Made by a program: the position numbers and the translations under genes
The notes under the pieces: generated by a model
What the model saw: the letters and a program-made list of their open reading frames with translations, nothing else
The model's database searches: none
What the model was told of the DNA's origin: nothing
Assembly (NCBI GenBank): GCA_045534555.1
Contig: JAZSJW010000031.1
Span: 8,280 to 72,279 of the forward strand
DNA length: 64,000 nt
Reading direction: 5' to 3'
DNA from: Clostridia bacterium
Lineage (GTDB): Bacteria; Bacillota; Clostridia; Christensenellales; UBA1242
Part shown: positions 8,529-62,477 of the stretch, one piece after another
How positions within the stretch are numbered: position 1 is the first letter of the stretch
Layout: each line of letters starts with the position of its first letter

Positions 8529-8561
8529 TTGACATAGGGGGGGGGGGGTATTGTGTATAAT
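8529..8561 (+). promoter_or_regulatory. Sigma-A promoter with G12 tract in the spacer (putative phase-variable promoter, copy 1)
   Basis: TTGACA 8529-8534, TA, G12 8537-8548, TATTGTG, TATAAT 8556-8561; spacer 21 bp. Confidence 0.85.
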
Positions 8562-8695
8562 AAAATTAAGCTAGTGTGTATCTTTAAAGAACATACTTTT
8601 TCTGTTATTATATGGTACTATAAATATATCAATGTTTATCCAGTTATATTTTTGTGAATTAATTTATCTTCTAAGCATCAAAATAAGGATTATAA

Positions 8696-11600
8696 ATGAG
8701 AAATAAAAAGTCAATTAGCTTAATAATAAGTTTGATAAGCGTATTTATAATAGGCTTGTCTTTTCTTGTGGGCTTTTTGTTTAAAGATAAAGATAGGGTA
8801 TTAGAAGATTTAGATGGAGAGCAATCTATAAATGTGTCAGTTGTTTCAGATGATGCTACAATAGAAGATAAAGGTGGTGCCATTTATGTTGAACCGGGTT
8901 CAAGTTATACAATGTATGGTGGAATTGTAAGTGGAAAAGCAACAACATATGGTGGTGCGATTTTTGTTTCTAATGGTGCAACATTTACCATGAAAGGTGG
9001 AACAATAGAGAATTGTTCCTCGTCTTATGGTGGAGCTATCTTTGTTGCAAATGGTGGCAAATGTATAATTGATGGAGGGAAAATAGAAGATTGTAGTGCA
9101 TCGGCTAATGGTGGTGGAATTTATGTTGAAGGAAATGGCACTTTAGAACTTGTTAAAGGTGAGATAAAGAACTGCACTGCTACTAGTTATGGTGGGGCTA
9201 TTTATACAAATTCTAATTTGAGCATAGACAATAATGTTTCTTTACTAAATACTAACACGGATAATGTGTCAAATAGAGGAGGAGCTATTTATTTTAATGG
9301 AAAAACATTAGATATAAATGGTTCAAAAATAGAGGGATTTAAAACGACTGGTTATGCAGGTGCGATATGGAATCAGTCTGGTACGGTTAATATAAGTAAT
9401 GCCACTCTAATATCCAATAAAACTGATGGTAGAGGTGGTGTATTGTTTAACAAAAACGGAGTGGTAAACATTTCGAATTCATACATCCAAGGGTGTGAAG
9501 CGAAAGATGGTGGTTCTGTAATAAATGACACAAAAGGAACATTGAATATTGATGACGTTACATTTGAAGGTTGTAATGCATCGTCCGCTGGTGGAGCAAT
9601 ATACAATTCAGGTACATGTACAATCAAAGGAGATTCTACATTTTATAATAATAAAGCAAGCGGTTGGGGTGGTAGTATTATTAACCACGGAACTATGACT
9701 ATGAGCGCTGGACATATTTACTCAGATCAAGTTTATTCAGACGATGGTGTAGCAAATAGGGGTGGCGGAATTTATAATTCTGGAACATTTGAATTTTCTG
9801 GAACTGCTGAAATTTTTGACTGTTATGCAAGACAAGATGGTTCAGGCGTTTATAATACTGGTACATTTACAATAACAGACACCGCATCTATTCGCTTTAA
9901 CAGGATAGCAAGCGATTCTACTAGTGGAAATGGCGGTAATGTATATACTTCTGGAACAATGATAATGAATGGTGGCAGCATAAATGGCGGTTCTGCTAGT
10001 TATGGTGGTAATATATATTCAGAGGGTGAATTAACAATTAATAGTGGAACTGTTTTGTCGGGTAGTGCTTATAATGATGGTGGCAGCATTTATTCTGTAT
10101 CTAGTAGTTTTAAAACGACAATAAAAGATATAACTGTAAGCTATTCTTCATGCGGTGGCAAAGGAGGGGCTTTCTACTTATCTGGTTCGGCAGAATTAAC
10201 AAATATTACTTTTGAAAATTGTTATTCTTATGGTGACGGTGGTGCAATATTTGTTGCAGGAACTACAGATTTTTCTTGTACTGATACAGAGATTAAAAAT
10301 TGTGAGGCCATAAGAAATGGTGGTGCAATATATCTTGATAGTGCGGAAAACTTCAGTTGTAATCAGGTAGATATCTATAACTGTAATGCAAAAGGTAGTG
10401 GTGGTGCTCTGTATTTAGCAAGCGCTGATAGTTGTCAACTAATAGTCAATATTGATTTATGTGTTGCTGGTGTGAATGGTGGTGGTATTTATTATGGCTC
10501 TTTAGATACGTCAATGTATGAAGATACAAATGATGTAATGATAACAAATTGTACTGCAACAAATGGCGGCGGCTTTTATTCAACTTTAAGTGAGCCTGAA
10601 AATTATTATAATGCATATATAACAAATTGTACTGCAACAAATGATGGCGGTGGTTGTTATATAAAAAACGAAGCAGAAACAACAAATGAATATATCATAG
10701 CTAAAAATTGTACAGCAGGAAACAATGGCGGTGGTGGCTATGTTGAAAATAGTGATGATGTTTCATTTGGAGTATTTAGCTTTACAGAATGTGAGGCTAG
10801 TAATAATGGTGGAGGTATTTATTTATCAAACACAACCTCAAGTAAAGGAGCAACCCTTCATTCATCTATAGATGATTGTAGCGCCTTGATGGGTGGAGGG
10901 GCATATTTAATAAATGCTTCAGAAGAAGCGAATATATCTTTTAGCCCAAGAATAGAAAATTGTACTGCAACAACTGGCGGTGGATTATATCTAGAGTCAT
11001 TGTCTACTGTATATATGGGTGGTTATATATCTGGTTGTATTGCTTCTGAGAATGGTGGAGGAATATTTGTAAAAGACACAAAAACTTTAGAATATGGTAA
11101 AGTTTTTAGTTGTCAAGCTGAATATGGCGGCGGTATTTATGCAGAAAACACAGAAGTAACAGATTATGACTATGATAGGCTATTTCAACCTATAGGATTT
11201 GCACAAAATGTTAAAAATTTAGTTTCGGCAAATGAAGAAGCAATATATGATAATAAAGCCAATTGTGACGGTGGTGGATTTTATTTAAAAAATTCTTACC
11301 TATCACAATCTAAAACAATAATTGCAAACAACATGTCTGATGGCGAAGAAGCTAAAGGTGGAAATGTTTATATTGATAGAACTTCAGGCTTTGGGCTTTT
11401 AGGTGGTGGTATAACAATATCGGAAGAAGCTGATACTGGTGCTGTTTATGGCGGTGTCATTTATTGTGAAGGTAGAATTACTATAAATGAGACACTTTTT
11501 GTTAGTGGACCAAAAGTGGAAATATCTGGTGGAAAAGCAACTTATGGCGGAGCTATATATTTGTCTGGCGGAACATTATCAATTGATGAAAAATCAACAT

Positions 11601-14600
11601 TGACAATAAAAAACACATCGTCAGATTATGGTGGAGCCATTTATATTGATGAAGATTCTGTAGTCTCTGCTAGTGGTGAAATTTCAATAGAAAGCTCTTC
11701 TGCGAATGAAGGGGGAGCAATATATTGTGCGGGAACGTTTGATTTTGCAAAGGGATATATAAAAAGCTGTTCGTCAACAACAAAAGGAGGCTCTATTTAT
11801 TTAACAGGAGGTACCTTATCAAACACAAGCGGTTATAGTCTAGATATCAACAATTCGGTTTCTGAATATGGCGGAGCTATATATATTGACAAAGAATCAA
11901 CTTGTTCTTTATATAATGGAGAAATATATTCATGTGAAGCTAGTTATGGCGGTGCTATCTATTGTGCGGGAGAGCTTAATGTTAAGAAGGGTAGTATTTA
12001 TGAAAATGCTGCCGCAGAAAGTGGAGGTGGAGTTTATCTTACAGGAAGCTTCACGATAAATAATTGTGAAATATTAAGCAATCAAGCAATAAATGGTGGA
12101 GCTATTTATTCAAATAAAGGAACTGTTGAAAGAGAAGGCACTGATAATATAAATATAAATAATAATATCGCTCAACGTGGAGCGGGAATATATTTTAGTG
12201 CCGGAAAGTCGTTAAGTCTTGATTTTACTAATGTAAAATTGCAAAACAATAAAGCAACATATAATAGCTTGAGAGGCTTTGGTGGTGCTATTTATAATGC
12301 TGGCAATTTGGAGCTTTTAGGAGTAACGATTAATGGCGATAGTGAACAAGCCAATGCTTCTGTTGGTGGAGGAATATATAATAGTGGTACGTTGACATTA
12401 AAAAACGCAACACTAAAAGATTTATATGTTAGTGAATATGGGGCGGCAATTGATACAGAAGGAAATTTAACTTTAGATGGTGTTTCAATTTTAAATTGTG
12501 AAGCGGCAGACCGTGGAGGTGCTGTGTTTGCATTAAAAACATCTACGACAACAATTATAGGAAATAGCAAAATTAGTAATAATATTGCAACAAAAGGTGG
12601 TGCGTTTTCTTTAACAAATAGTGCAACATTAATAATGGATAGTGGTACTATAAATAACAATAGATTATCAATAAATAATAATAAGGCTTGGGGCGGGCAG
12701 ATTTATTTGCAAACAGCAACAACTAAATTTATTATGAATGATGGTACTATTTCAGGAAATGCAGAGCCGCAAACTTCATATATAAGCGATTATGTTAATG
12801 CATATTATGGTGGAGGTATTTATAGTGTAGGTACAGTAGAGATTAATGGAGGGACTATAGTAAATTGTGTCGCTACTTGTGGTGGAGCAGTTTATAATTT
12901 AGGTCAAATTGATTTAATCGGTACAAGTGTGCAAATAAAAGAAAACTTTAGTAAAAGTGGTGGTGCTATATATTCTGTAGATGCAACCTGTAATTTATTA
13001 GGTGGAGAAATTGTAAATAACTATGCTTCTAACCATGGTGCGGGAGTTTATGCAACAGGCTCAACATTTGTTATTGATGGAACAAATATAGATAATAATA
13101 TACTTGTTGCTGACAACTTAGATTCGTTTAATAGAGGCCATGGTGGAGGAATAGTTGTTTCTAGTTGTAATGTTACCATGAATAGTGGAAGCATAAGCAA
13201 CAACACAATAAACGAAACTGCAGTGCAGCCATTTGCTGGTGGTGTTTATGTAACAGGTACTACCGAATTTATATTTAATGGCGGTACAATACAAAACAAT
13301 GTAATAAAATCTAATAAAGGTGGCGGCGGAAATATATTTATTAATCCAGCAGCTAAATTTATAATGAATGGAGGCCTTTTAGCAGGGGATAGAAATACCT
13401 GTCAAGCTCAACTAGGTGGTGCAATTCAAAATTATGGAAAAGTTGAAATTTATGGTGGAGAAATTTCGGGTTGTCGTGCAATTTATGGTGGCGCAATATC
13501 GAATTTTGGTGAACTTACAATAAAAGACTCAACACCTCAATTAGATGGAGGGGAGAGAACTTATTTAACAATTAAGAATTGCTTTGCAACATCAGGAATT
13601 GGGTCGAACATTTTTGCAGCTAATACAATTAACATAGAAGACTCGGTAAATATTTCGACAGGATCTATAGTTATTGCTTGTGTAAAATATACATATGTGG
13701 AATCTGAGACTTTATTTATAGATGAATATGTAGGAAAAATTATTTATAATAAAAACTATGATGAAGCATTAACTCAGATAGCAAGACAAACAATTCAATT
13801 ATATGATTTTGATTTTGATGATATATCCCTAGTAACTTCTTCTTTTAATAATGGTTATGAAGGATATATTGATACTTTAAGAAATGGCATAGCAAATCAT
13901 TATGTGCACAAATTTGATGGTTCGATCTCAATTGAATATTTTGATGAAGAGGGTAACACTTATGGAGCAACATATGGTGGCGAAGCAAAAAATGATTGGT
14001 TTTTAGATACAAATGGTTTTTATTCTATTGATAATTTTAAAATTGAAACAATAACTGAAGAAAAAGGCTTTAAGTTGATTGATGATAGAAATGATGGAAA
14101 TTCATTTAGTCCTGTCGGTTTAGATTATTATAACCCAAATGAAAACATTAATCAGTATGGTGTAAAAATATGGTGGAATGTTTATATTGATTATTTTGAT
14201 AGATTTACAATGTTTGATTCTCCTTATAATAGTCTTTTACAAGGCGAAAAAATGAAGGTTTATGATAAAGACATAGTTATGGTTGATGAAACAACTCAAG
14301 CAATATACCCTTTTTATGTTGATAATGCGGGTAATATTCAAAACAATTATGATTACAATCATAAGTTCCATTTATACGCACATTTTAGTTATTGGTATGA
14401 TGTAGAGACTAGTGTTGATGGTAATCTAAATAGATTTGGTGTTAATGAAGAGGTTTTGATTACCGGAGATAAGAATATAAGGTCGTATTATTTTATATCA
14501 GTTACTATTGGAAGTAGATATAATGGGTTTGGACAAGAGGGGTTTGATGTTTATCCATTCCCAACACCAAATTATTGTTATGAATTTGGACTTGAATTTT

Positions 14601-15433
14601 ATTCAAACTATTTTAATTATTATGATGGTGACTGTTGGAATAGAGGCTATTTGCAAGAGGCTAATTTCTTGGGTAGATACTTAGATGACGGAGAAAAAGA
14701 ATATCAGTGTATTGTTGATTGGGATATTTATGATGGGGTTATCTTTGATAGTAGTTATAATGTGACTAGTGTTATTAATGGTTATCAGTTTAACTTTTAT
14801 GAGAATATAACAATAGATTATGCGGATACATATCATTACTATTATTTCAATTTTTATGGTAACGAGAAAGTGGTTGATCCTGGTGGTTTCGTAATTGAAG
14901 AAGTAGTATATAATGAATATACAATTAATGTAAATGGTGTAGAACATAGTAGTTATAGTTATGATGAATACACTGAAGACTTTTTAGGCTTTTGGATTTT
15001 TGAGGGGGATTTGTATTTAGGAGACGGTACTCGTTATACTGGTTCTTATGTTGAAGTTGGTGTAACCTATTATTTCTATGATAATGTTCATATATATCCA
15101 GATGCAATAGCAAAAGACTCGCATGAAACTACTGTAACAATTTACACAGAGGGTGAGAGTGGTTATAGAAATCAAATATATTCAACCACTATTTCATACA
15201 CAATGCCAGATGTTTTATATGTTGAAGTAAAAAATGGTGCGATATATTTATGGGGGCAAAAAGTTGTTGACATACCATCAACACCTCCATCTGATAGTGG
15301 GTTGCTTAGCAATGTAGCGATATATGACTCTGCGTACAATAGATTAAATTATGTGGTTGGAAGCAGTGTTTTATATGATGAAGGAATTTCAAATGGCGAA
15401 GATTTCATAATAATAATTCATTATATCGTGTAA
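8696..15433 (+). CDS. Giant membrane-tethered GGAI-repeat (Pmp/right-handed beta-helix-like) surface protein, paralog A (2245 aa)
   Basis: N-terminal basic + hydrophobic anchor; dozens of xGGAIY repeats with NC.A motifs; Tyr/Asp-rich C-terminal region; no LPXTG motif or beta-barrel. Confidence 0.85.
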   Translation: MRNKKSISLIISLISVFIIGLSFLVGFLFKDKDRVLEDLDGEQSINVSVVSDDATIEDKGGAIYVEPGSSYTMYGGIVSGKATTYGGAIFVSNGATFTMKGGTIENCSSSYGGAIFVANGGKCIIDGGKIEDCSASANGGGIYVEGNGTLELVKGEIKNCTATSYGGAIYTNSNLSIDNNVSLLNTNTDNVSNRGGAIYFNGKTLDINGSKIEGFKTTGYAGAIWNQSGTVNISNATLISNKTDGRGGVLFNKNGVVNISNSYIQGCEAKDGGSVINDTKGTLNIDDVTFEGCNASSAGGAIYNSGTCTIKGDSTFYNNKASGWGGSIINHGTMTMSAGHIYSDQVYSDDGVANRGGGIYNSGTFEFSGTAEIFDCYARQDGSGVYNTGTFTITDTASIRFNRIASDSTSGNGGNVYTSGTMIMNGGSINGGSASYGGNIYSEGELTINSGTVLSGSAYNDGGSIYSVSSSFKTTIKDITVSYSSCGGKGGAFYLSGSAELTNITFENCYSYGDGGAIFVAGTTDFSCTDTEIKNCEAIRNGGAIYLDSAENFSCNQVDIYNCNAKGSGGALYLASADSCQLIVNIDLCVAGVNGGGIYYGSLDTSMYEDTNDVMITNCTATNGGGFYSTLSEPENYYNAYITNCTATNDGGGCYIKNEAETTNEYIIAKNCTAGNNGGGGYVENSDDVSFGVFSFTECEASNNGGGIYLSNTTSSKGATLHSSIDDCSALMGGGAYLINASEEANISFSPRIENCTATTGGGLYLESLSTVYMGGYISGCIASENGGGIFVKDTKTLEYGKVFSCQAEYGGGIYAENTEVTDYDYDRLFQPIGFAQNVKNLVSANEEAIYDNKANCDGGGFYLKNSYLSQSKTIIANNMSDGEEAKGGNVYIDRTSGFGLLGGGITISEEADTGAVYGGVIYCEGRITINETLFVSGPKVEISGGKATYGGAIYLSGGTLSIDEKSTLTIKNTSSDYGGAIYIDEDSVVSASGEISIESSSANEGGAIYCAGTFDFAKGYIKSCSSTTKGGSIYLTGGTLSNTSGYSLDINNSVSEYGGAIYIDKESTCSLYNGEIYSCEASYGGAIYCAGELNVKKGSIYENAAAESGGGVYLTGSFTINNCEILSNQAINGGAIYSNKGTVEREGTDNININNNIAQRGAGIYFSAGKSLSLDFTNVKLQNNKATYNSLRGFGGAIYNAGNLELLGVTINGDSEQANASVGGGIYNSGTLTLKNATLKDLYVSEYGAAIDTEGNLTLDGVSILNCEAADRGGAVFALKTSTTTIIGNSKISNNIATKGGAFSLTNSATLIMDSGTINNNRLSINNNKAWGGQIYLQTATTKFIMNDGTISGNAEPQTSYISDYVNAYYGGGIYSVGTVEINGGTIVNCVATCGGAVYNLGQIDLIGTSVQIKENFSKSGGAIYSVDATCNLLGGEIVNNYASNHGAGVYATGSTFVIDGTNIDNNILVADNLDSFNRGHGGGIVVSSCNVTMNSGSISNNTINETAVQPFAGGVYVTGTTEFIFNGGTIQNNVIKSNKGGGGNIFINPAAKFIMNGGLLAGDRNTCQAQLGGAIQNYGKVEIYGGEISGCRAIYGGAISNFGELTIKDSTPQLDGGERTYLTIKNCFATSGIGSNIFAANTINIEDSVNISTGSIVIACVKYTYVESETLFIDEYVGKIIYNKNYDEALTQIARQTIQLYDFDFDDISLVTSSFNNGYEGYIDTLRNGIANHYVHKFDGSISIEYFDEEGNTYGATYGGEAKNDWFLDTNGFYSIDNFKIETITEEKGFKLIDDRNDGNSFSPVGLDYYNPNENINQYGVKIWWNVYIDYFDRFTMFDSPYNSLLQGEKMKVYDKDIVMVDETTQAIYPFYVDNAGNIQNNYDYNHKFHLYAHFSYWYDVETSVDGNLNRFGVNEEVLITGDKNIRSYYFISVTIGSRYNGFGQEGFDVYPFPTPNYCYEFGLEFYSNYFNYYDGDCWNRGYLQEANFLGRYLDDGEKEYQCIVDWDIYDGVIFDSSYNVTSVINGYQFNFYENITIDYADTYHYYYFNFYGNEKVVDPGGFVIEEVVYNEYTINVNGVEHSSYSYDEYTEDFLGFWIFEGDLYLGDGTRYTGSYVEVGVTYYFYDNVHIYPDAIAKDSHETTVTIYTEGESGYRNQIYSTTISYTMPDVLYVEVKNGAIYLWGQKVVDIPSTPPSDSGLLSNVAIYDSAYNRLNYVVGSSVLYDEGISNGEDFIIIIHYIV

Positions 15434-16325: not shown

Positions 16326-17306
16326 ATGAAAAAAATAATAAGTCTTTCGTTTATATGTTTGGTTTGTCTTTTTGCTTTTGCTGGTTGTGGAGTAAAAGGA
16401 AGCCGAGTTGCAACGGGCATTGAATTTGTGCGCGATGTTTTTTATGTTGACTATAATGTAGAAACCCGTTTGGATTATAAAATTTATCCAGCTACAGCAG
16501 ATGATGTTTATGTGACTTATGAGCCACAGCCATCAATTGACCAAACTAGTTATTTCAACTTTACTAAAGATGGAAGAATTAAGGTCATTAATAAAAACTT
16601 TACAAAGATAGATGTTATAATAAGAATGAATGATTTTTCTGATGAGTGTGAAGTTAGGTTAAAAGAATATCCAACAGTAATTAATTTTGATAAAACTCAA
16701 GATTATATTAATGCGGGAAGTGTTTATGCTTTAAATTTAAGTGGTATTTATAATGGGGAAACCAGAGTTTGTGGAAATGGTGACTTTAATTATAAAATCG
16801 AAAGTTCAAATTCAAGCATTATAGAAGTTGTAAGTGAAGAAGCTTTGTTAGTTAGGTCTACAGGCAGAAGAGGTTCAGCTGATATTAAAGTATCTTTGCA
16901 AAACAGTCAAGGAACTTTAATGAGTGGGCTTGAAGCACAAATAAAATTAACTGTTGTTGAAAACATATCAGAAGCATTTGTTTCTTTTGGTGATGATTTG
17001 GTTGTAAAAAATGGGTCATCTAATATAGTTTCAATGACATCTGATGAGCAAAGGTTGTTAAAGGTGTTATATTTTAACTCCTTGGGAATTCAAAATACAT
17101 TGACTGATTTCAATATATATTTATCAAATGAAGAAGTATTTGAAATTATAGAGCAAGATGGGGAAGTTTACTTAAAAGCAAAGCACTTAGCGGTCACTAG
17201 CAGTGAGGCATATCAAGTTTTTGTAACAATACAGTCAGAAGCTTTAAAGGTTAATGGGGAACCACTCAAAATTGTTTGTGAATTTAAAGTGCGTATTTTA
17301 GGGTAA
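16326..17306 (+). CDS. Lipoprotein with Ig-like (Big2-type) beta-sandwich domains
   Basis: Lipobox FAGC; YKIYPATA and SSNSSIIEV Ig-like signatures. Confidence 0.75.
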   Translation: MKKIISLSFICLVCLFAFAGCGVKGSRVATGIEFVRDVFYVDYNVETRLDYKIYPATADDVYVTYEPQPSIDQTSYFNFTKDGRIKVINKNFTKIDVIIRMNDFSDECEVRLKEYPTVINFDKTQDYINAGSVYALNLSGIYNGETRVCGNGDFNYKIESSNSSIIEVVSEEALLVRSTGRRGSADIKVSLQNSQGTLMSGLEAQIKLTVVENISEAFVSFGDDLVVKNGSSNIVSMTSDEQRLLKVLYFNSLGIQNTLTDFNIYLSNEEVFEIIEQDGEVYLKAKHLAVTSSEAYQVFVTIQSEALKVNGEPLKIVCEFKVRILG

Positions 17307-17488: not shown

Positions 17489-20284
17489 ATGTCTAAAAAA
17501 GGTTTAATTTCATCTCTTATTGTTGGAATTGTTCTTACACTTTCTTTAGGTATTTATACTTTAGTTAGTGTTTTTGGTGGTAATGGCAGCACACCTCCTC
17601 AAGGTCCAACAGAAACAACAGTAAACGTTGCTTTTAGAACAAGCGATACTGTTGAACAATTAAGCGGTTATGCTGAACAAGATATCGTTTTCACTTTAGC
17701 AGGAGAGGGTGCTCAAAACCCAGTTGTGCTAAATGCTGAAACAGGTAAATATGAAGCTCTTTATGCAGGTGAAGTTACTGCAACTGTAACTGATGCAAAG
17801 GGAAATAAAAAGATTTTCAAAATCAAAGTATATAATCAAGGAACTGGTGCTTCGCAGGAAGATGCTTTCATTATTGCAAGTGCAAAACACTTAAAAGAAT
17901 TTGCAGACATCGTTAATTCAGATAGTGCAGAAAGAACTGTTCCTGCATATACAACTTTGGTTTCTGATATTGATTTAGGCGAATATAATTGGAGACCAAT
18001 TGGTGGTCAAGGCAATAAAGAATATACAGGAACTTTTGATGGTAATGGTTATACTGTAAATAACATGACAATTTCTGTAACAGCTACTAACTATGAAGAA
18101 TTCCTTGCTCTTTCTGCTTTACCTGAGGTTGGAACAAGAGGTTTCTTAGATTTAGGTTTATTTGGTAAAGTAAATAATGCAACAATCAAAAATCTAAATG
18201 TTAAAAATGCAACAATCAACGTTGCTACTGATGTTTATTCTGTAATTAAAGAAAACATTGTTCCTGAAGGTGCATTATATGATGCTGGTGTTGTTAGACT
18301 TACAATAGGAACTATTGCAGGTTCTGCTTATAATACAGATATTATTGGAAATGAAGAATATTCTAATATTTCTGCAAGAATTAATGCATATAGCTGTGCT
18401 GCTGGTAACCAAGCTCATGGTATTGGTGGTGTAGTTGGTGTTGCTCAACTTGTAAGAGTTAATGCATATAATGTAAAAACAAATATCACAAACAATCTTG
18501 AATTAACTAAAAATTCATATATTGGTGGTGTGTTTGGTATGGCATTCTCATCATATAATGTTGGTTATACAAACAATGTTTATGATGCTGCTGATAGAAC
18601 TGTAATTGACAATGTAAAAGTAGACTTTGCTGGCACATTATTATATAAAAATGCTGCTTGGGTTGGTGGTGTTGTTGGTTACGGTCAAAATATCGGAATT
18701 CAAAACTCTACTGTTGAATCATTTAAAATTGTAGATAACTCAGCAAGAAGTCATATTGACTATACTTTAGATGACTATACACACGTTGCTGGTGTTGCTG
18801 GTACATTTGCTTCTTATCCATTAACAGGTGCTGAAAAAGACGATGCTGCTGTAGTAGCTGCATTTGTTAGCGGAATGGAAAACGTTGATGTTAAAAATGT
18901 TGATGTATTCATGCTTGGTGGTGATGTTGCTGGTGCTGTTTGGTTTGCTGGTAACAACTACGATGAAGCTATTGGCTTAAATGAAACAATGAGAATTAAG
19001 AACTCTACTGTTAATGGTAACATTACAGCAAATAGAGTTGCTGGTTTCGCTTGGCAAGTTAACCCAGGTGTTACAATTGAATATACAAAGACTTTTGAAA
19101 CAGCTGTTGTTGATTTAGATATTAAAGCTGTTGTATCTGCTGGTTTTGCATTATTAAACCATGGTCAAATCGTTGGTTATAGAGAAACTGTTCCTGTAGC
19201 TGAAGGTTCTGAAGAAACAAAAGTTGTTACAACAAAAATTAATATTAATACAATCGGAATGGGTGCATTAATTGAAGCTCCTATTACAAATCAAAAAGTT
19301 TGGACTGCAAGAAATGCTGTTTATGCTGCTGGTTTTGTAGGTAAATCAGAAACATTAGTTGCTGTTGGTAATGCTGATTTTTCTAAAGGTGTTGCAGGTA
19401 TTGCAAACTTTGATATCAACTTTACAGCAAAAGAAAGCATTAACTATGCAGGTATTGCATTTAAGACTGGTATTACAGGAATTATGGGTATTACAGTAAA
19501 TGCAAACTTTACATCATACAACTATAGTGCACAAGGAAACAATATTTCTACTACATATATGGTTTCAGGTGGTGTTTGTGAAGCGAGTGCTGGAACAGCT
19601 TTAACTGAAATAAAAGTTATTTTAAATGTAAATAACGGTGTAAATAAATCTCTTAACTACGGCGCAACATTCTTTGGTGGTTTAGTTGCTAGATATGTTG
19701 GTTCTGAAGTTATTAATGAAGAAGCTTGGGGATTGGCTATTGATAATAGTGAAGTTTCAGGAGAAGTTTATTTTAATCATTCATATGAAACAATCACAAT
19801 TGATGAAGTTAATTACAATGTGTTTATTGCTGGTGGTTTAATTGGTGCTATTGAAGCAAAAACTGCTGCTGGTGGTCAAGAATATGTTGATGCTCTTGCA
19901 ATTACAAGCTTTGCAGGTTCACACGTTTCTGGCAATACAGTATCTAACTTAAAAATCACTGCAGACTTTACTAATGATACTTTGGGTAGCCAAGGTTATA
20001 GAACAAGAGGTGTTGGTGCTTTAGTTGGTGTTGTTAATATTGCATTAGATGCAGATGTTATTGACCTTTCAACAAACACTGTTACAGCTGTTGAAATTGT
20101 TGCAGATGAAGATGCTTTCACTTATGCATATGAAGGGGAAAATGGTTCACAAGTAACAAATATTCTTCTTGGTGCTAACAAAGAAAATGTATTTGGTGCA
20201 AGCTATGCTTGGAACTGTACAATTGCAAACAGAATTACAAATCCAGCTGAAGTTGGTGTAACATACACAGAATTAGCTGAATAA
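17489..20284 (+). CDS. Large surface protein with GLUG-type beta-helix repeats (931 aa from ATG 17489)
   Basis: AAGGAG RBS before ATG 17489; N-terminal TM; DIDL..WRPIG..YTGTFDGNGYTV, GLFG, repeated IGG(V/L)(V/I)G motifs. Confidence 0.8.
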   Translation: MSKKGLISSLIVGIVLTLSLGIYTLVSVFGGNGSTPPQGPTETTVNVAFRTSDTVEQLSGYAEQDIVFTLAGEGAQNPVVLNAETGKYEALYAGEVTATVTDAKGNKKIFKIKVYNQGTGASQEDAFIIASAKHLKEFADIVNSDSAERTVPAYTTLVSDIDLGEYNWRPIGGQGNKEYTGTFDGNGYTVNNMTISVTATNYEEFLALSALPEVGTRGFLDLGLFGKVNNATIKNLNVKNATINVATDVYSVIKENIVPEGALYDAGVVRLTIGTIAGSAYNTDIIGNEEYSNISARINAYSCAAGNQAHGIGGVVGVAQLVRVNAYNVKTNITNNLELTKNSYIGGVFGMAFSSYNVGYTNNVYDAADRTVIDNVKVDFAGTLLYKNAAWVGGVVGYGQNIGIQNSTVESFKIVDNSARSHIDYTLDDYTHVAGVAGTFASYPLTGAEKDDAAVVAAFVSGMENVDVKNVDVFMLGGDVAGAVWFAGNNYDEAIGLNETMRIKNSTVNGNITANRVAGFAWQVNPGVTIEYTKTFETAVVDLDIKAVVSAGFALLNHGQIVGYRETVPVAEGSEETKVVTTKININTIGMGALIEAPITNQKVWTARNAVYAAGFVGKSETLVAVGNADFSKGVAGIANFDINFTAKESINYAGIAFKTGITGIMGITVNANFTSYNYSAQGNNISTTYMVSGGVCEASAGTALTEIKVILNVNNGVNKSLNYGATFFGGLVARYVGSEVINEEAWGLAIDNSEVSGEVYFNHSYETITIDEVNYNVFIAGGLIGAIEAKTAAGGQEYVDALAITSFAGSHVSGNTVSNLKITADFTNDTLGSQGYRTRGVGALVGVVNIALDADVIDLSTNTVTAVEIVADEDAFTYAYEGENGSQVTNILLGANKENVFGASYAWNCTIANRITNPAEVGVTYTELAE

Positions 20285-54725: not shown

Positions 54726-54849
54726 TAAATAAATTAATCAAAAAAATATAAGAGTGGGGATTTCCACTCTTTTTTTATGCCAGTTTTTGAATTAAAGGTT
54801 AAAGATTTAAAAAAAATATAAAAAAATTTAAAATACCCCCTAAATTTAT

Positions 54850-54881
54850 TTGACATAGGGGGGGGGGGTATTATGTATAAT
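54850..54881 (+). promoter_or_regulatory. Sigma-A promoter with G11 tract in the spacer (putative phase-variable promoter, copy 2)
   Basis: TTGACA 54850-54855, TA, G11 54858-54868, TATTATG, TATAAT 54876-54881; spacer 20 bp. Confidence 0.85.
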
Positions 54882-55003
54882 AAAATTGTATAAATAGGTG
54901 TTGTCAAAGATACATATATCTATACTGGTCGTATGATGGAATAAATATAATATATTTAGAAGAATTAAATTATCTTTAAAAGTGCTCAATAAGGATAAAG
55001 AAT

Positions 55004-58000
55004 ATGAGAAGAAAAAAAGTTATAAGTTTAGTTATAAGTTTGGTAAGCGTATTTGTAATAGGCTTATCATTTCTTGTGGGATTTTTGATAAAAGAAAAAA
55101 ACCAAACAAATACTTTAGAAGCAGAAACGACAGAGAATGTTTCTGTTGTTCCTGATGACGCAACGATTGAGGATAAAGGTGGTGTCCTTTATATTGAAGA
55201 GGGTTGCTCATATACAATGTTTGGCGGAACAATAGGCGGAGAAGAAACAAAATATGGCGGTGCAGTTTTTGTTTCACCGGGTGCAACTTTTATTATGAAA
55301 GGTGGAACAATTGAAAACAGCAAAGCAACTTATGGCGGAGCTATATTTGTTGCAAATGGAGGAACTTGTGTTTTAGAAGATGCTGTTATTGATAATTGTT
55401 CTGCAGGCATAGATGGAGGTGCTATTTATCTAGAAAAAACAGGAAGTTTAACCATAGATGGTGTTGAAATTAAAAACTGTTCAGCTGCAGGTAATGGTGG
55501 TGGAATATATACTCTCGCAACTAGTGGTACCTTAAACATAAAAAATGTTACTTTCACAAATCTTGATGCTGTAGATGGAGGTGCTGTTTACTCAAATGGT
55601 ATGGATATTATATTTGATGAAATTATTGCAGATGAGAATGGACCAGTTACTATTCCTGCTAGTAACATAAGTTATTGCGATGCATTAGGTTCAGGCGGTG
55701 CTATTTATTCAAAAGGCAACATTTCAACAAATAAAACAACAATTACTAATTGTACCACTAAAACTAACGGTGGTGCTATATATTCTAATAAAGATGTTTC
55801 TTTAGGGTATTCATGGGATAATGTTGAGGAAGATTTATGGCATCTTGAACAAACTACAATAAAAAATTGTTCGGCAGATTTAAATGGAGGTGCATTTTAT
55901 TCTAAAAGCATATATCTTAATTGTGTTGACATAAGTGACTGTACTGCAGAAGAAAGTGGAGGTGCAGTATATACAGAAAGATTTGGTGGTGTTTCACAAA
56001 GTGTTTCATATTTTTATATGGAGTATGGAAAAATAAATAATTGCTCTGCTAAATATGGAGGTGCAGCTTATATATTAAGCAGCTTTAATGCGGGAAACAT
56101 TTATATTGATAAATGCTCTGCAAAAAATGGAGCCGGTATTTTTTCAAGGGCTGATGAGATAATATTTGATGAAGGAGTTCTTATAACTAATTGCTCAGCA
56201 ACAGATAATGGTGGAGGTATTTTTGCTTCTAACGGACTTGATGTAAATTCATATTTTGAAACAATAGTTGATAGTTGTGAGGCAGGTGTCAGTGGTGGTG
56301 GCATTTTTGTATCTGATCGCCCTGATGGAAATAAAATAAAAAATATTAGTATAGCTAATTGTAAAGCTGGTTCTGGTGGTGGTATTTATGTAAATTCACA
56401 AACAAAAACAGTAATAGATGAAACTTATATAGAAAATAATACAGCAGAAGTCGGTGGTGGTATTTATAATGCTTATGGATCGCAAGTTTCTATCACAGGA
56501 GGAGTTATTTTTAACAATTCGGCAACTAACGGTGGTGGCATTTATAACAACTCAAGTAAGACAACTGAAATTTCGGGAACTGCTAAAATAATCGGCAATA
56601 CAGCGACATTAGGAGGCGGTGTTTATTCTAACAATTATACAACAATATCTATTAGTGGTGGTCAGATTGTTGGAAATGAAGCAACATCTTATGGTGGTGG
56701 AATTTATGCTGTGCAAGCAACAGTCAATCATAGTGGTGGAATTGTTGGTGGAGAATATGTATACAGTCAGATATCATACACAGGAAATAAATCAACAGGT
56801 GAAGCTGGTGGCGGTGTGTACATAAAAAACGGAACATACAACCTTACTGGAGGAAGTGTGATTCAAAATAGTGCTCCAAGGGTTGCGGGGATCTTTTTGT
56901 ATAGTTCAGAATTTTCAATGACTGAAGGTTCTGTTTCATTAAACACAGCCACAGACAAAGAAGTTGGTGGAATTTATGTATATGGATCATCAACGGCAAC
57001 AATTAGTGGTGGAAGTATTTCTAACAATACAGCAACATATGGTCCTGGAATTTTTGTTGCTTCATCAAGCACTCTAAAGATGACGGGAGGTGTTGTAGGT
57101 TATAACTCAGGATATCGTGGCGGTGGAATTTATCATTCATCATCAGGTGAGTGTGTTATTTCTGGAAATGTAAATATCATTGGAAACACAGTTACAAATA
57201 ATGGTGGAGGAATTTATATAAATTCAGGAACACTTACATTAGGAACAGAAGACGAGGAATTCACAGGAAATATTACAGGAAACAATGCGAAAATTTATGG
57301 TGGTGGAATTTACTGCTATTCTACAATAAATCATAATAGCGGAAGTATTGGCGGTGAATATGTGGATGGAGAGTTAACTCATGTTGGGAATAATGCAACA
57401 TCAGGAGCAGGTGTATTTCTTAATTCAGGAACATACAATTTGAATGGTGGAAACATTTCTAACAACACATCTAAAAAGTTGGCTGGTGGAGTTATGTGTA
57501 ACGGGGGCTCATTAATAATGTCAGGCGGAAGTATTTCACAAAACTCTGCAAATAGTGAAGCTGGCGGTGGTGTTTATTTATACGAAAAAGCAAAAGCAAA
57601 AATCAGCGGTGGTGAAATTTCTTTCAATTATGCAGAATGGAATGGCGGTGGTATTTATGTTATAGATACCTCTTCATTAGATATGTCAGGGGGTATAATT
57701 ATTGAGAATACCACTAGTGGATATGGCGGAGGAATTTTTAATACCTCAACAACGGAAATGATTATTTCAGGAAGTGCAAAAATTGTAGGAAATCAGTCAA
57801 AAACATCAAATGGAGGCGGAATATATCATTATTCAACGGCACGACTTACAATTTCTGGAGATTCAAAAATTGCAGGAAATGAGTCGAGTCAGGCAGGCGG
57901 TGGAATTTATAAAATTAATGGGGAATTGTTTATCTCAGGTGGACAAATAACTGGTAACTCGTCAACAAAAAGTTCTGGTGGAGGAATTTACGCAAGCGGC

Positions 58001-61000
58001 ACAATTAATCAAACTGGTGGAATGATTGGTGGTGAATATACATATGGAGAAACAACACACACTGGAAATACTGCTCAATTGAATGGCGGTGGTGTTTATT
58101 TGACCAGTGGGCAATATATAATTAATAAAGGTGAGGTTGTTGGAAACGAGGCTTCAACAGGTGGTGGTGTTTTTGTTAATAATAATGCAACACTGAACAT
58201 GACAGGTGGAAATGTGTCTCAAAACACCGCAGCAACCAACGGTGGAGGAATATATTTTAAGGAAACATCAAAATACAGCCTCGAAGATGTAATAATATCA
58301 GAAAATACTGCTAATGATGGTGGTGGAATTTATTCTGAAACTTCGTTAACACTAGAAAAGATTACAATTAAAGAAAACAAAGCAAATAATAATGGTGGCG
58401 GGGTTTGTGTGGCTAATGGAACTACAACATTAACCGCAGTGAAAATCATATCAAACACTGCAGAAAATTATGGTGGGGGCATTTATTCTTTTGGCTCTGT
58501 TAACATTTCATCAGGCTTTAAATATAGTGACTATGAAGATGTTTGGGAAGATATGTTTGGAGACATTATTAATAAATATCCAACGAATGCAATAGAGGAT
58601 GCGACCGAAATTTCTTGTAACATATCAACAAATGGTTCTGGTGGTGGAATTTATGCCGGTGGTAACATTACAAGTTATGGTTGCAAATTGCTTCAAAATA
58701 GTGCACCAAATGGTTCTGGTGGTGGCTTTTATTCAATTGGAAAAATAACAAGTGACTTTCAGACAATAGAAGTTACAGTATATGATACAGATAATCTTTC
58801 AAATATTGATTATGGTGAACCAAGTGAAAAAAATGTAGTTGTGATTTCTTCAAGTTTATCAAATTACAACACTTGTGGTGTTGATGGTGGTGCATTCTAT
58901 GCAAGCCAAGGATTTTATCTTTGCGGATCCATGACTGGTAACGAAGCTGGAAATAATGGAGGATCTATTTATTCTTCAGGAGATGCTGAAGTTGAAATAG
59001 GTATAGTTGATGTTGATATTGATAATTACGATATCATTGAAGAAAGCATTCTCACGCAGAACCAGGCAATTGAAGGTTCTGGTGGTGCTATTTATATGTC
59101 TAATGGCCTCTTAAAATTTAACGGAAGCGCCACTTCAAATACGGCAGCAATTAACGGTGGTGCGATTTACAGCGGGGTTGATACATCAATTTATAATCTT
59201 TACTATGACGAATATCAAATAAAAATACAAAACAATACAGCAGGAGAACTTGGTGGTGGTATATTTACTCTTGGAAATTTAACAGTTGATGATGCATATA
59301 TAAATTGCAACTATGCGGATAAAGGTGCTGGTATTGCAATTGATGGCGGAAAACTAGAGATGATTTATGGTGAGATTTCGGAAAATACCGCAACTTCTCA
59401 TGGGGGAGGTGTATATGTCACTAATGGAGAAATTTTGCACTCTTATGGGTCAATTAGTAAAAACTCTTCCGGAGCTGCCGGTGGAGGCGTGTATTTAAAT
59501 AAATCGACATTAAACATTTCTGGCGGAACGGTGAAAGAAAATACTGCAATGCGTGCAGCAGGTGTGTTTGTCTATAACAAATCAACATTAAATTTGACAC
59601 AAGGGTCAATATCGTATAATAAAGCAACTGATACTTATGCTGGTGGTGTATATTTATATAGCAACTCAACAGCTGTTATGAGTGGCGGTTCTGTGGAATA
59701 TAATACTTCAAAATCGAATGGCGGTGGTTTTTATGTTTCTGCTAACAGTTCACTTGAGCTTAGTGGTGGAAAAATTAATTCGAACACTGCAGAAAAGACA
59801 ACTTCAAATACTAGAGGTGGAGGAATTTTCCTTGCGGGGTCATTGAATATGACAGGAGGAACAATTTCAAACAACAAAGCTGCATCAGGTGGTGGCATTA
59901 ATGCTTTTGGTGGTTCAACAATTAGCATAACAAAAGGAACGATTTCAGGAAACTGTGCGTATAGGCATGGTGGAGCTATACTTTGTAGCGTAGATTTAAC
60001 TCTTGGAAATGTTGATGCTGATAATAGTGATTTGAAAATTGTTGAAAATTATTTGTCTGGTCACGTTCTTGAAGATGGAACAGAGTATGCAAGTGGAAAC
60101 GGTGCTGCTATTGCGCTTGCGAGTGAAGGTGTAATAACTATGAATTCTGGGATGATTTCTGGAAACTATATTAAATCTTCGACTACAAATATGATAGGTG
60201 CGGGAGTTTATCTTACAGATAATTCAAAGTTTGTTTTGAATGATGGTTTAATTGACGCAAATTATTTCGAGTATGACGAAAAAGGAAATCCTGTTTCAAG
60301 AATAAATAGTGAAGGGTTAGTGTATGAACATAGATACAAAGGCGGCGCGATTTGCCTGAATACAGAAACACAGTTTGTGATGAATGGAGGAATAATTCAA
60401 AATTCAGACGCTGTTTATGGTGGAGCGATTTACGTCTTTTATGATGGACTTCTTGAGTCTCAAAGTAAGATATCAGTTTCAATGACCGGTGGCACTATTA
60501 CTAACTGCCGAGCAGATTATGGCGGAGCTATTTGTGTTGAGGGTGAATTAGATGCAAGCCTTACTTCAGTTCCAGACTTTCATACTGTGGACTTAATGGG
60601 CGCAGGAACAATCTCTTATTGTTCAGCGAAATATGATGGCGGTGCAGCATTTACTAATATTGGTGATATTTGGGCTTCAAATGGCACAGATGGAGCTTTT
60701 GTATTTAATTCTTGTACAGCAGGAAGAAATGGTGGAATTATTGCAGCTGATGGAAGCGCTGCTGGATTTATGTTTATTGATTGCAGCTTTGATAACATAA
60801 GCTTAAGAAATCAAAATAACGAACTTGACAATAGTTTATATACAACAACGTATAAAGATATGATTGAAAGACATGGCTGGCAATTCACTCCATGTGGAAC
60901 ACTAATTCTTGCAGAAAATGGGGGATTAGTAAGCTCAACAAATGGTGCGTCTGGCTATTTTGGGCTAAATGATTTTGATATTGATATTGCAGTAAAACAA

Positions 61001-62065
61001 ACAGGCGTGTATGGTTATAACGTTACTGTAGAATGGTCAGATCAAGTAGAGGGTTGCAGGCACGAATACGTTGACCAATTCTATGAATTAGGACAAGAAG
61101 ATAAAAATTATCAAATTACAATTGAAGTTTATGATTCATATGGAGATTATGCGGGTGAAGAAATATATTCAGATATACCAGTTACTCCAGCAGAGGAAGA
61201 TTATTATTGTTCCTTTTACAATATTACAACCTATTATGATCCATGTGAAATAGTTACGGTTGATGAAAATAATTTATGTATTTATGATACTTATGACGGA
61301 TCGTATTTCAATGAAACTTTTTATGTACAATTTAATAGTTGGTATGCTGTAATTGACGGTGTTAGTTATGAAAAAGAAGCAATCAATGATATTGATCTTT
61401 GCGTTTCGTCTGATGGAACAACAACAATTTGTATTATAGCATATCAAGATAGCTGTCCTAATTGTGATGGTTTTGGCTGGGTTGATTGTGGAAATTGTGA
61501 CAATGGAATTGTTAGTGGTTGCGATTATTGTGACAATGGTGTGTGCATTGATTGTGGAGGTTCTGGAGAGTGTAGTGCCTGTGACGGTACAGGTGATGAT
61601 GGTGAGTGTCTTTCTTGTGATGGAGGTCAAGATTGTGTTTTTTGTGGCGGTGATGGATATTGTGATGAATGCAATGGGTCTGGAGAAAAGGACTGTGATG
61701 TTTGTGGGGGAATAGCAGAAGTAGAATGTGAATATTGCTATGGTGAAGGAAGTATTATTGAGGACTATTATGGCACTTGTGTTGTAAAATACGGCAGTGA
61801 AAATTATGTATTTAAAAGAGATGAAAATGGCTGTGTTTCTATTGAGATAAATAGTTCTTATAGTTCTGCACTATTAGAGGTTTATATTAATGGTGAAATG
61901 ATTGGAAGTGTTGACTTTGAAACCAGTATGCTTGATCATTGGCGAGTAAAGATTGGGTCAAAAACTTATTCAGGATCCGGAGAAACGGATAATATTATTA
62001 CTGAAGATATTTCAGTTGAACATAACTCTGTTCTAACATTAACAATTGAACATTTTGTTAATTAA
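55004..62065 (+). CDS. Giant membrane-tethered GGAI-repeat beta-helix surface protein, paralog B (2353 aa), with C-terminal CxxC array
   Basis: N-terminal ~150 aa clearly homologous to 8696-15433; GG(A/G)IY repeats; 10 CxxC motifs near the C-terminus. Confidence 0.85.
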   Translation: MRRKKVISLVISLVSVFVIGLSFLVGFLIKEKNQTNTLEAETTENVSVVPDDATIEDKGGVLYIEEGCSYTMFGGTIGGEETKYGGAVFVSPGATFIMKGGTIENSKATYGGAIFVANGGTCVLEDAVIDNCSAGIDGGAIYLEKTGSLTIDGVEIKNCSAAGNGGGIYTLATSGTLNIKNVTFTNLDAVDGGAVYSNGMDIIFDEIIADENGPVTIPASNISYCDALGSGGAIYSKGNISTNKTTITNCTTKTNGGAIYSNKDVSLGYSWDNVEEDLWHLEQTTIKNCSADLNGGAFYSKSIYLNCVDISDCTAEESGGAVYTERFGGVSQSVSYFYMEYGKINNCSAKYGGAAYILSSFNAGNIYIDKCSAKNGAGIFSRADEIIFDEGVLITNCSATDNGGGIFASNGLDVNSYFETIVDSCEAGVSGGGIFVSDRPDGNKIKNISIANCKAGSGGGIYVNSQTKTVIDETYIENNTAEVGGGIYNAYGSQVSITGGVIFNNSATNGGGIYNNSSKTTEISGTAKIIGNTATLGGGVYSNNYTTISISGGQIVGNEATSYGGGIYAVQATVNHSGGIVGGEYVYSQISYTGNKSTGEAGGGVYIKNGTYNLTGGSVIQNSAPRVAGIFLYSSEFSMTEGSVSLNTATDKEVGGIYVYGSSTATISGGSISNNTATYGPGIFVASSSTLKMTGGVVGYNSGYRGGGIYHSSSGECVISGNVNIIGNTVTNNGGGIYINSGTLTLGTEDEEFTGNITGNNAKIYGGGIYCYSTINHNSGSIGGEYVDGELTHVGNNATSGAGVFLNSGTYNLNGGNISNNTSKKLAGGVMCNGGSLIMSGGSISQNSANSEAGGGVYLYEKAKAKISGGEISFNYAEWNGGGIYVIDTSSLDMSGGIIIENTTSGYGGGIFNTSTTEMIISGSAKIVGNQSKTSNGGGIYHYSTARLTISGDSKIAGNESSQAGGGIYKINGELFISGGQITGNSSTKSSGGGIYASGTINQTGGMIGGEYTYGETTHTGNTAQLNGGGVYLTSGQYIINKGEVVGNEASTGGGVFVNNNATLNMTGGNVSQNTAATNGGGIYFKETSKYSLEDVIISENTANDGGGIYSETSLTLEKITIKENKANNNGGGVCVANGTTTLTAVKIISNTAENYGGGIYSFGSVNISSGFKYSDYEDVWEDMFGDIINKYPTNAIEDATEISCNISTNGSGGGIYAGGNITSYGCKLLQNSAPNGSGGGFYSIGKITSDFQTIEVTVYDTDNLSNIDYGEPSEKNVVVISSSLSNYNTCGVDGGAFYASQGFYLCGSMTGNEAGNNGGSIYSSGDAEVEIGIVDVDIDNYDIIEESILTQNQAIEGSGGAIYMSNGLLKFNGSATSNTAAINGGAIYSGVDTSIYNLYYDEYQIKIQNNTAGELGGGIFTLGNLTVDDAYINCNYADKGAGIAIDGGKLEMIYGEISENTATSHGGGVYVTNGEILHSYGSISKNSSGAAGGGVYLNKSTLNISGGTVKENTAMRAAGVFVYNKSTLNLTQGSISYNKATDTYAGGVYLYSNSTAVMSGGSVEYNTSKSNGGGFYVSANSSLELSGGKINSNTAEKTTSNTRGGGIFLAGSLNMTGGTISNNKAASGGGINAFGGSTISITKGTISGNCAYRHGGAILCSVDLTLGNVDADNSDLKIVENYLSGHVLEDGTEYASGNGAAIALASEGVITMNSGMISGNYIKSSTTNMIGAGVYLTDNSKFVLNDGLIDANYFEYDEKGNPVSRINSEGLVYEHRYKGGAICLNTETQFVMNGGIIQNSDAVYGGAIYVFYDGLLESQSKISVSMTGGTITNCRADYGGAICVEGELDASLTSVPDFHTVDLMGAGTISYCSAKYDGGAAFTNIGDIWASNGTDGAFVFNSCTAGRNGGIIAADGSAAGFMFIDCSFDNISLRNQNNELDNSLYTTTYKDMIERHGWQFTPCGTLILAENGGLVSSTNGASGYFGLNDFDIDIAVKQTGVYGYNVTVEWSDQVEGCRHEYVDQFYELGQEDKNYQITIEVYDSYGDYAGEEIYSDIPVTPAEEDYYCSFYNITTYYDPCEIVTVDENNLCIYDTYDGSYFNETFYVQFNSWYAVIDGVSYEKEAINDIDLCVSSDGTTTICIIAYQDSCPNCDGFGWVDCGNCDNGIVSGCDYCDNGVCIDCGGSGECSACDGTGDDGECLSCDGGQDCVFCGGDGYCDECNGSGEKDCDVCGGIAEVECEYCYGEGSIIEDYYGTCVVKYGSENYVFKRDENGCVSIEINSSYSSALLEVYINGEMIGSVDFETSMLDHWRVKIGSKTYSGSGETDNIITEDISVEHNSVLTLTIEHFVN

Positions 62066-62112
62066 TGTCTTAAAAAAGAAGATTGAAATTCAATCTTCTT
62101 TTTTTGTTTAAG

Positions 62113-62450
62113 AAAACCACGGAATAGTCCCGTGGCTAGAAAAGAGGTTATACCTTTGCATAAAAATACCTCCATCTGACGAGGGAGGTGGCAGTTTCAG
62201 AGAAACTGACGGAGGGAGAGAAACATATAAAAAAGCAAATTAAGTTTTATAAAATGAGAAAAAAGAAAGAAAGTATGAGAGAAAAACAGAGACAAAAAAA
62301 CAAATAACTCTCCCTCAGTCAGACTTCCGTCTGACAGCTCCCTCGTCAGATGGAGCAAAAAAAAATAAGTATTATTAAAAAGCCATTCAGGCTTTGCGTA
62401 GAACAAGGGGGGTTACCCCTAAATGAAAAACCACGGGTTTTACCCGTGGA
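62113..62450. repeat. MITE/REP-like non-coding element
   Basis: CCACGG..CCGTGG hairpins at both ends (62117-62135, 62431-62449); internal inverted REP pair with perfect 18-bp IR (62170-62187 / 62338-62355). Confidence 0.7.
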
Positions 62451-62477
62451 ATTTTATTGTGTATATAATTGTATTTT

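Follow-up and report, generated by a model that had tools for sequence, protein, structure and literature searches.

Two large genes share an upstream region and an N-terminal module

The window, the stretch of 64,000 nucleotides analysed here, is part of contig C20 of the source genome G000, an assembly of 941 kb in 45 contigs with 30.8% GC and 82% completeness. It holds two large genes, A and B, each of which sits alone among housekeeping genes, as originally described: A lies between pyk (pyruvate kinase) and a ttcA-like PP-loop gene, and B lies between an rluA-like pseudouridine synthase gene and an SPFH gene. The features of both loci are given below; the promoters were predicted by consensus.

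8529..8561, + strand: predicted sigma-A promoter of gene A; TTGACA at 8529-8534, TA, G12, 7 nt, TATAAT at 8556-8561; spacer 21 bp
8537..8548, + strand: G12 homopolymer, candidate slipped-strand switch of gene A
8562..8695, + strand: 5′ UTR of gene A; AATAAGGAT at 8682-8690
8696..15433, + strand: gene A, 2245 aa; same module as B, ~36 GG(A/G)I repeats, unique aromatic and acidic tail
8696..9055, + strand: conserved N-terminal module of A, aa 1-120
54776..62473, no strand: approximate lineage-specific insert, from the rluA-like terminator to the SPFH gene, as judged by congener synteny and one X2 contig joint
54850..54881, + strand: predicted sigma-A promoter of gene B; TTGACA at 54850-54855, TA, G11, 7 nt, TATAAT at 54876-54881; spacer 20 bp
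54858..54868, + strand: G11 homopolymer, candidate slipped-strand switch of gene B
54882..55003, + strand: 5′ UTR of gene B, common to the paralogs; ribosome-binding-like motif AATAAGGAT at 54988-54996
55004..62065, + strand: gene B, 2353 aa; N-terminal hydrophobic anchor, ~50 Pmp-like GG(A/G)I repeats, unique tail
55004..55363, + strand: conserved N-terminal module of B, aa 1-120
60884..62062, + strand: C-terminal tail of B; no relationship to those of the four other beta-helix members

In B, the module begins with a basic N-terminus, followed by a hydrophobic segment that is presumably an uncleaved anchor, a linker and the first beta-helix rungs; the tail of the protein carries 10 CxxC motifs.

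The upstream sequences of A and B aligned with a score of 175, against a mean of 60 for shuffled sequences (maximum 92 of 500 shuffles), and the UTR alone scored 76 (shuffle mean 39, maximum 63), bearing out the sharing of both regions that the original prediction had claimed. The common upstream motifs it listed are real, but the letters elided between them had concealed the most informative element, the G12 or G11 run in the -35/-10 spacer. The shared N-terminus likewise stood, at ~120 aa rather than ~150: in bins of 30 aa, B and A were 80, 60, 57 and 80% identical over the first four bins, 37-40% over aa 121-210 and 16-34% thereafter. The bodies had been described as different repeat arrays, which proved incorrect, as both are built of GG(A/G)(I/V/L) repeats whose median period is 27 aa, and the two can be aligned from end to end with 27-29% identity. 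The C-terminal tails are indeed unrelated (best blastp E 0.89). In a protein collection, A, B and the rluA-like protein each formed a singleton cluster, and two other proteins were absent.

One 5′ module heads a dispersed family with several bodies

Searching G000 with the module by tBLASTn added four members, as anticipated, and brought the family to six: two on C20 (A and B) and one each on C27, C5, C38 and C44. The proteins are 1300-2360 aa long, and their dispersed genes together occupy 33.7 kb, or 3.6% of the 0.94-Mb assembly. The existence of these members and the uneven identity of A and B along their length both speak against a simple old duplication.

The common part comprises the promoter, the UTR and ~120 aa. 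Five bodies belong to one Pmp-like beta-helix repeat class (25-30% identity), and the sixth, that of the C44 member, is of the BspA-type LRR class, with the same module placed on an LRR_5 body (E 4e-264). Near position 17913 the first codons and promoter of the C44 member are replaced by unrelated sequence close to the contig end, reflecting either a misassembly or a true truncation. In one contig of run X2, letters of the C44 member continue from a B-like 5′ part.

Among members, 5′ DNA identity ranges from 68 to 80%, codons for identical residues differ between copies in 27-57%, and the bodies have no long DNA match in common. All five intact members have their own promoter, and no promoter-less or silent donor copy was found in G000 (82% complete; C44 5′ end aside). 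Nor were invertible segments with near-identical DNA, of the kind seen in shufflon-type systems, found in this 82% complete assembly. Across G000 and its relatives, the module precedes bodies of the beta-helix, BspA-LRR or DUF6273 kind. Comparison of the sequences supports a family of dispersed paralogs in which promoter, UTR, anchor and first beta-helix rungs form a portable 5′ module and the distal parts are exchangeable. To this extent the proposed duplicated switch-plus-anchor module with variable distal parts survives; the switch itself had been left unnamed, and our candidate is the poly-G spacer.

The bodies are predicted to form anchored beta-helices

Each intact member starts with basic residues followed by a hydrophobic segment. 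Within their first 60 residues A and B have no Cys that could serve in a lipobox, and LPxTG is absent from all members; from these two observations we infer that the N-terminal anchor stays uncleaved. For B aa 37-636, AlphaFold2 run on the single sequence gave a model that was nearly all beta (pLDDT 73, pTM 0.78). Its best VIA-align matches were right-handed beta-helices, namely AlgE4 (Z 27.7, rmsd 2.9, 311 aligned), Vag8 (Z 26.3, rmsd 2.7, 391 aligned) and pertactin (21.8); Foldseek against the PDB returned no match for the model at E ≤0.001. The predicted structure is a long right-handed beta-helix held by the uncleaved N-terminal anchor.

Models of the chlamydial Pmp repeat (PF02415, TIGR01376) matched three of the six members above cut-off, the Pfam model in C27 and C44 and TIGR01376 in C38 and C44. 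A and B themselves matched no Pfam or NCBIfam model, and C5 matched no Pmp-repeat model; an Atlas match to Chlam_PMP clusters, with a score of 0.88, offers a lead at most. Like chlamydial Pmp proteins, these proteins form a paralog family with GGA(I/L/V) and FxxN-type motifs and a predicted right-handed beta-helix. They differ in that the G000 members are without a C-terminal autotransporter barrel (no match to the Autotransporter family in any of the six at E up to 0.1), have an N-terminal membrane anchor and belong to a monoderm organism. We regard the A/B-family proteins as predicted membrane-anchored surface adhesins; adhesion is the function that we infer from the architecture. A beta-helix does not by itself demonstrate it, and the structural matches include many polysaccharide lyases.

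Poly-G runs occupy the predicted promoter spacers

The promoters of A and B have the layout TTGACA-TA-G(n)-7 nt-TATAAT, and C27, C5 and C38 carry G12, G12 and G13 at the same promoter position. All five members with an intact start thus have a homopolymer inside the predicted -35/-10 spacer, which measures 21, 20, 21, 21 and 22 bp in A, B, C27, C5 and C38, respectively. Ordinary TTGAC/-10 pairs in G000 peak at 17 bp (79 vs 10-32 at other lengths). The tracts are far longer than the genome background and tied to genes of predicted surface proteins: G/C runs in G000 number 176 at length 5, 14 at length 6, none at length 7 and ten at ≥8, with six of these ten lying behind TTGACA. Of the six runs of ≥11, five belong to these family promoters. 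A short, semi-conserved C-rich motif lies upstream of the -35 box. Interrupted G runs also exist in G000 and its relatives, and several contigs begin or stop exactly at such a G run. Two further promoters point off contig ends, a TTGACA-G8 promoter at the start of C24 and a TTGACA with an interrupted G5AG4 and an 18-bp spacer at the end of C36; either could belong to the C44 member.

A metagenome scan for the exact promoter returned two unrelated loci with 55% GC. Variation in run length was not seen at any G000 locus. When four gut runs were aligned to 54740-55080, no contig spanned the G run of gene B, and neither did any of the pieces or gaps listed in a wider alignment, a result that is uninformative either way.

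G runs also occur within coding sequence in G000. On the minus strand of C2 (1-2000) lie tandem short ORFs beginning MANL. The open copy, a match to phage tail-fibre families (phrog_2712, E 2e-10), encodes its glycines with non-slippery codons. At the corresponding codons two copies have G10 and G11, both of them out of frame, and a fourth stops at the contig end in G8. From their sequence, these ORFs look like phage receptor-binding cassettes under frameshift phase variation. A G9 run at C21:31518-31526, in frame within a long coding sequence (Met-Gly-Gly-Gly-Ser), is a possible further frameshift switch.

Poly-G promoters recur among relatives

The module was found in 9 of 11 genomes of the genus, with up to 42 matches, and the nearest named genomes that carry it are mostly "Clostridia bacterium" gut assemblies. 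Among 15 named relatives scanned, the bodies were DUF6273 in seven, LRR_5 in seven and neither in one. At 26 loci of congeners, with 310-450 upstream bases examined, ten had an unbroken run of ≥9 G upstream or in the first codons; the rest comprised two with interrupted runs, one with a G8 away from the -35 box, four that end too soon and nine with none. Given these nine loci, the module does not need the run. In congener G010, two members of the same protein family carry the run in their first codons (G10 and G9) and are out of frame, a placement that a promoter-binding factor cannot explain; a member in congener G001 has G6, in frame.

The pattern TTGAC-N0-9-G8+ occurred in 78 of 201 genomes of the family (455 matches, up to 41 per genome; 5 in the reversed control), figures that are counts rather than tests, since kin are not independent. 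The order's other families had it in 29 of 145 genomes, mostly once or twice each. We examined spacing in 58 promoters from four high-count genomes (19/41, 19/23, 13/13 and 7/19 of their matches). Of the 56 scorable spacers, 41 measured 16 bp, a single base off the usual length, with 7 at 15, 3 at 17, 3 at 18 and 2 at 19 bp; ordinary TTGACA/TAHAAT pairs in these genomes numbered 48, 34, 44 and 33 at 17 bp vs 3, 8, 14 and 3 at 16 bp. The genes behind these promoters represent protein families different from that of A and B, and 43 of 46 downstream ORFs had an N-terminal hydrophobic segment, compared with 140 of 662 in G000.

Promoter pairs with ≥80% flank identity differed in G number in 9 of 25 cases and were equal in 16. 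Near-identical copies (flank identity in brackets) included G10 vs G11 (100/100), G11 vs G12 (96/100) and G9 vs G10 (96/100), and the differing pairs include flank identities of 100, 96, 96 and 94%. In genome G196, 18 of 19 tracts were G9. This uniformity, together with the equal-length pairs, exceeds what free drift would give and is compatible with a functional 16-bp promoter.

In congener G008, contig C43 (1-7428) carries a module-plus-DUF6273-type target gene, behind which come an Avd gene, a template repeat and a reverse transcriptase. With a variable repeat that matches the template, and a reverse transcriptase, this is by sequence a complete DGR layout; of the 37 adenines in the template, 24 are changed in the variable repeat, compared with 9 of the remaining 85 positions. 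Two other G008 members, on C42 and C1, match the template less cleanly and are likely remote DGR targets, both with poly-G upstream (for one, the contig begins in G11; for the other, the spacer contains G9). The 82% complete G000 gave no RVT_1 match, and its six members did not match the G008 template. The DUF6273 profile found nothing in G000, and its control likewise matched nowhere.

Genes A and B are lineage-specific insertions by synteny

At the B site, rluA directly adjoins SPFH in all six congeners in which the assembled locus extends that far; three further loci stop short of it, and one second rluA copy has another neighbour. At the A site, the 1.5 kb retrieved behind pyk held no module in any of the six congeners with a pyk match; pyk and the PP-loop gene are directly adjacent in G007. 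On this synteny at both loci, A and B are lineage-specific insertions. A single X2 contig connects 54775 with 62474 at a depth of 5.9, with 25 letters on its shorter side, and hints at a close strain without gene B. Pieces of the B body were present at 95-100% identity in all four gut runs and covered most of its length, which argues that the body is stable across strains.

We found no sign of a transposon carrying gene B: the repeat downstream has only short matches elsewhere, and no target-site duplication was seen. Judged by their sequence divergence, the copies A and B are not recent twins. New members likely arise by duplication of the promoter-UTR-anchor module and its fusion to a new body, which would be an evolutionary process and not a programmed one.

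Proposed slippage in the promoter spacer and its alternatives

We consider it likely, with a probability of roughly 0.7, that this family of predicted surface adhesins is switched on and off at the level of transcription by slippage in the promoter poly-G run. Replication slippage would change the number of G residues and hence the -35/-10 spacing, switching transcription at random. By analogy with porA, TP0126 and vlp, a given gene would be off or weak in most cells at the assembled G length, and rare length variants would restore a spacer of ~17 bp. Each gene would switch independently, yielding combinations of surface proteins; our guess is that these target a partner cell, given a likely dependent lifestyle. 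One point against switching is that the G000 tracts lie 3-5 bases off 17 bp, so that, if the assembled lengths are correct, several slips are required for the ON state; if the nearer TATTAT/TATTGT hexamer is taken in A, B and C27, the spacer is instead 3-4 bases short of 17 bp. MutL, which was found in G000, would lower slippage.

The G run could instead be a static element that old duplicates have inherited. It might act as a regulator site, a G-quadruplex or a deliberately weak spacer, and the genes would then be regulated and not switched at random. The strong uniformity of G9 with a 16-bp spacer in the four relatives suits such an element, as do several G8 promoters that keep 16 bp through an extra non-G base, the clustering of G000 tracts at 11-13, several steps from 17 bp, and the C-rich motif upstream of the -35 box. 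We nevertheless hold it to be rather unlikely, for the offset of the run from the -35 box varies from 0 to 9 bases by lineage and its length from G8 to G14, G number differs between copies with 94-100% identical flanks, and frameshifting tracts occur within coding sequence of the same family and in the phage tail-fibre ORFs of G000. That the runs might be artefacts of sequencing or assembly, poly-G calls of two-colour chemistry, is a suspicion invited by short-read assemblies whose contigs often break at runs and by the error-prone homopolymer lengths described in one study (PMC9187656). Error can shift run lengths and not their placement. Of 201 genomes assembled independently, 78 have the runs directly behind TTGAC(A), on either strand, against 5 control matches, which makes this explanation highly improbable.

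Recombinational antigenic variation, with the 5′ module as a homology arm for frequent swapping or conversion of bodies, would follow the analogy with an antigenic-variation family drawn in the original prediction. The drop in identity after ~120 aa, the fusion of one module to beta-helix, LRR_5 and DUF6273 bodies, and gut-run contigs that track the 5′ part of B and then depart are what it would produce. We think it improbable: the dispersed copies have, where intact, a promoter each, and a silent donor was not found; their 5′ DNA is only 68-80% identical with many synonymous differences, which argues against ongoing conversion, and the bodies lack long common tracts. The 95-100% identity of B body pieces along most of their length in other samples also tells against frequent exchange.

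Relation to known phase-variable systems

In Neisseria meningitidis porA and Treponema pallidum tp0126, a homopolymer whose length fixes the spacing of the two boxes is a documented switch with an optimum of 17 bp (PMC7864442), and the present genes resemble them in having poly-G between -35 and -10 of a surface-protein gene. Those are single outer-membrane genes of diderm pathogens in which switching was demonstrated (PMC7864442), whereas here we have a paralog family in a monoderm gut commensal. Two further differences are the up to 41 such promoters per relative genome and the distance of the G000 tracts from 17 bp.

The A/B family would work like the Vlp system of Mycoplasma hyorhinis, but it is not a Vlp. 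Vlp genes have a conserved 5′ part followed by variable repeats; the lipoproteins are short and the genes clustered. Across this paralog family each gene has a promoter homopolymer of its own (PMC10502178), and the likeness extends to surface paralogs with separate transcription in a small-genome, host-associated bacterium. Vlp has poly-A and lipoproteins (PMC10502178), whereas the present genes are dispersed and encode 1300-2360 aa without a lipobox Cys, and their poly-G is a candidate switch from sequence. For a gut commensal with tracts controlling surface adhesion structures, the closest case is Bifidobacterium breve, in which G10-G11 tracts switch pili and G11 was strongly heterogeneous in culture (PMC9187656). 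Those are intragenic frameshift tracts in two sortase-pilus loci and not promoter spacers; here only the G010 members are intragenic.

Setting and significance

DNA related to G000 turns up in animal gut metagenomes. Genomes in its family are ~1 Mb, and in other families of the order they are mostly larger. A profile search found Spo0A in G000, and no match for PGI or ATP-synthase gamma in this 82% complete assembly; with the small genome, these features agree with the description of UBA1242, Christensenellales (PMC12306168). For UBA1242, the likely family, dependence on partner cells has been proposed and uncharacterised membrane proteins have been noted (PMC12306168), and the six A/B-family genes are good candidates for the machinery of attachment.

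The switch mechanism itself is textbook and already known, and switches of this kind are best known from pathogens. We found no paper on a poly-G promoter switch in these Clostridia in the openly accessible literature covered. A 2025 review names as a major open question that genomes with many phase-variable loci are apparently restricted to pathogens (PMC11868660). An uncultured gut commensal family with up to 41 candidate promoter switches per genome bears on that question. More speculatively, and with less belief than disbelief on our part, reduced-genome gut Clostridia (likely UBA1242) may possess a family-wide display system, in which poly-G keeps as many as dozens of paralogs off while no more than a few, or just one, are on at any time. 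Unrelated binding bodies would be attached to the module, and in some species a DGR would mutagenise the tip as well. If true, such a system would be a two-tier randomiser for partner-cell choice or phage escape in a non-pathogen.

Other features of the two loci

An imperfect inverted-repeat element, REP- or MITE-like, lies 3′ of gene B (62160-62356); it has short matches on six other contigs and a high depth from other organisms in the gut runs, and similar elements sit upstream of many congener members. At the A locus, the gene at 16326-17306 is conserved and lipoprotein-like and adjoins pyk in all six congeners with a pyk match; it has no Pfam match, and Atlas clusters with Big_2 Ig-like domains scored 0.93-0.94. 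In G008 (C1:59681-64075), pyk is apparently inverted in place with respect to its neighbours, relative to G000, G002 and G007.
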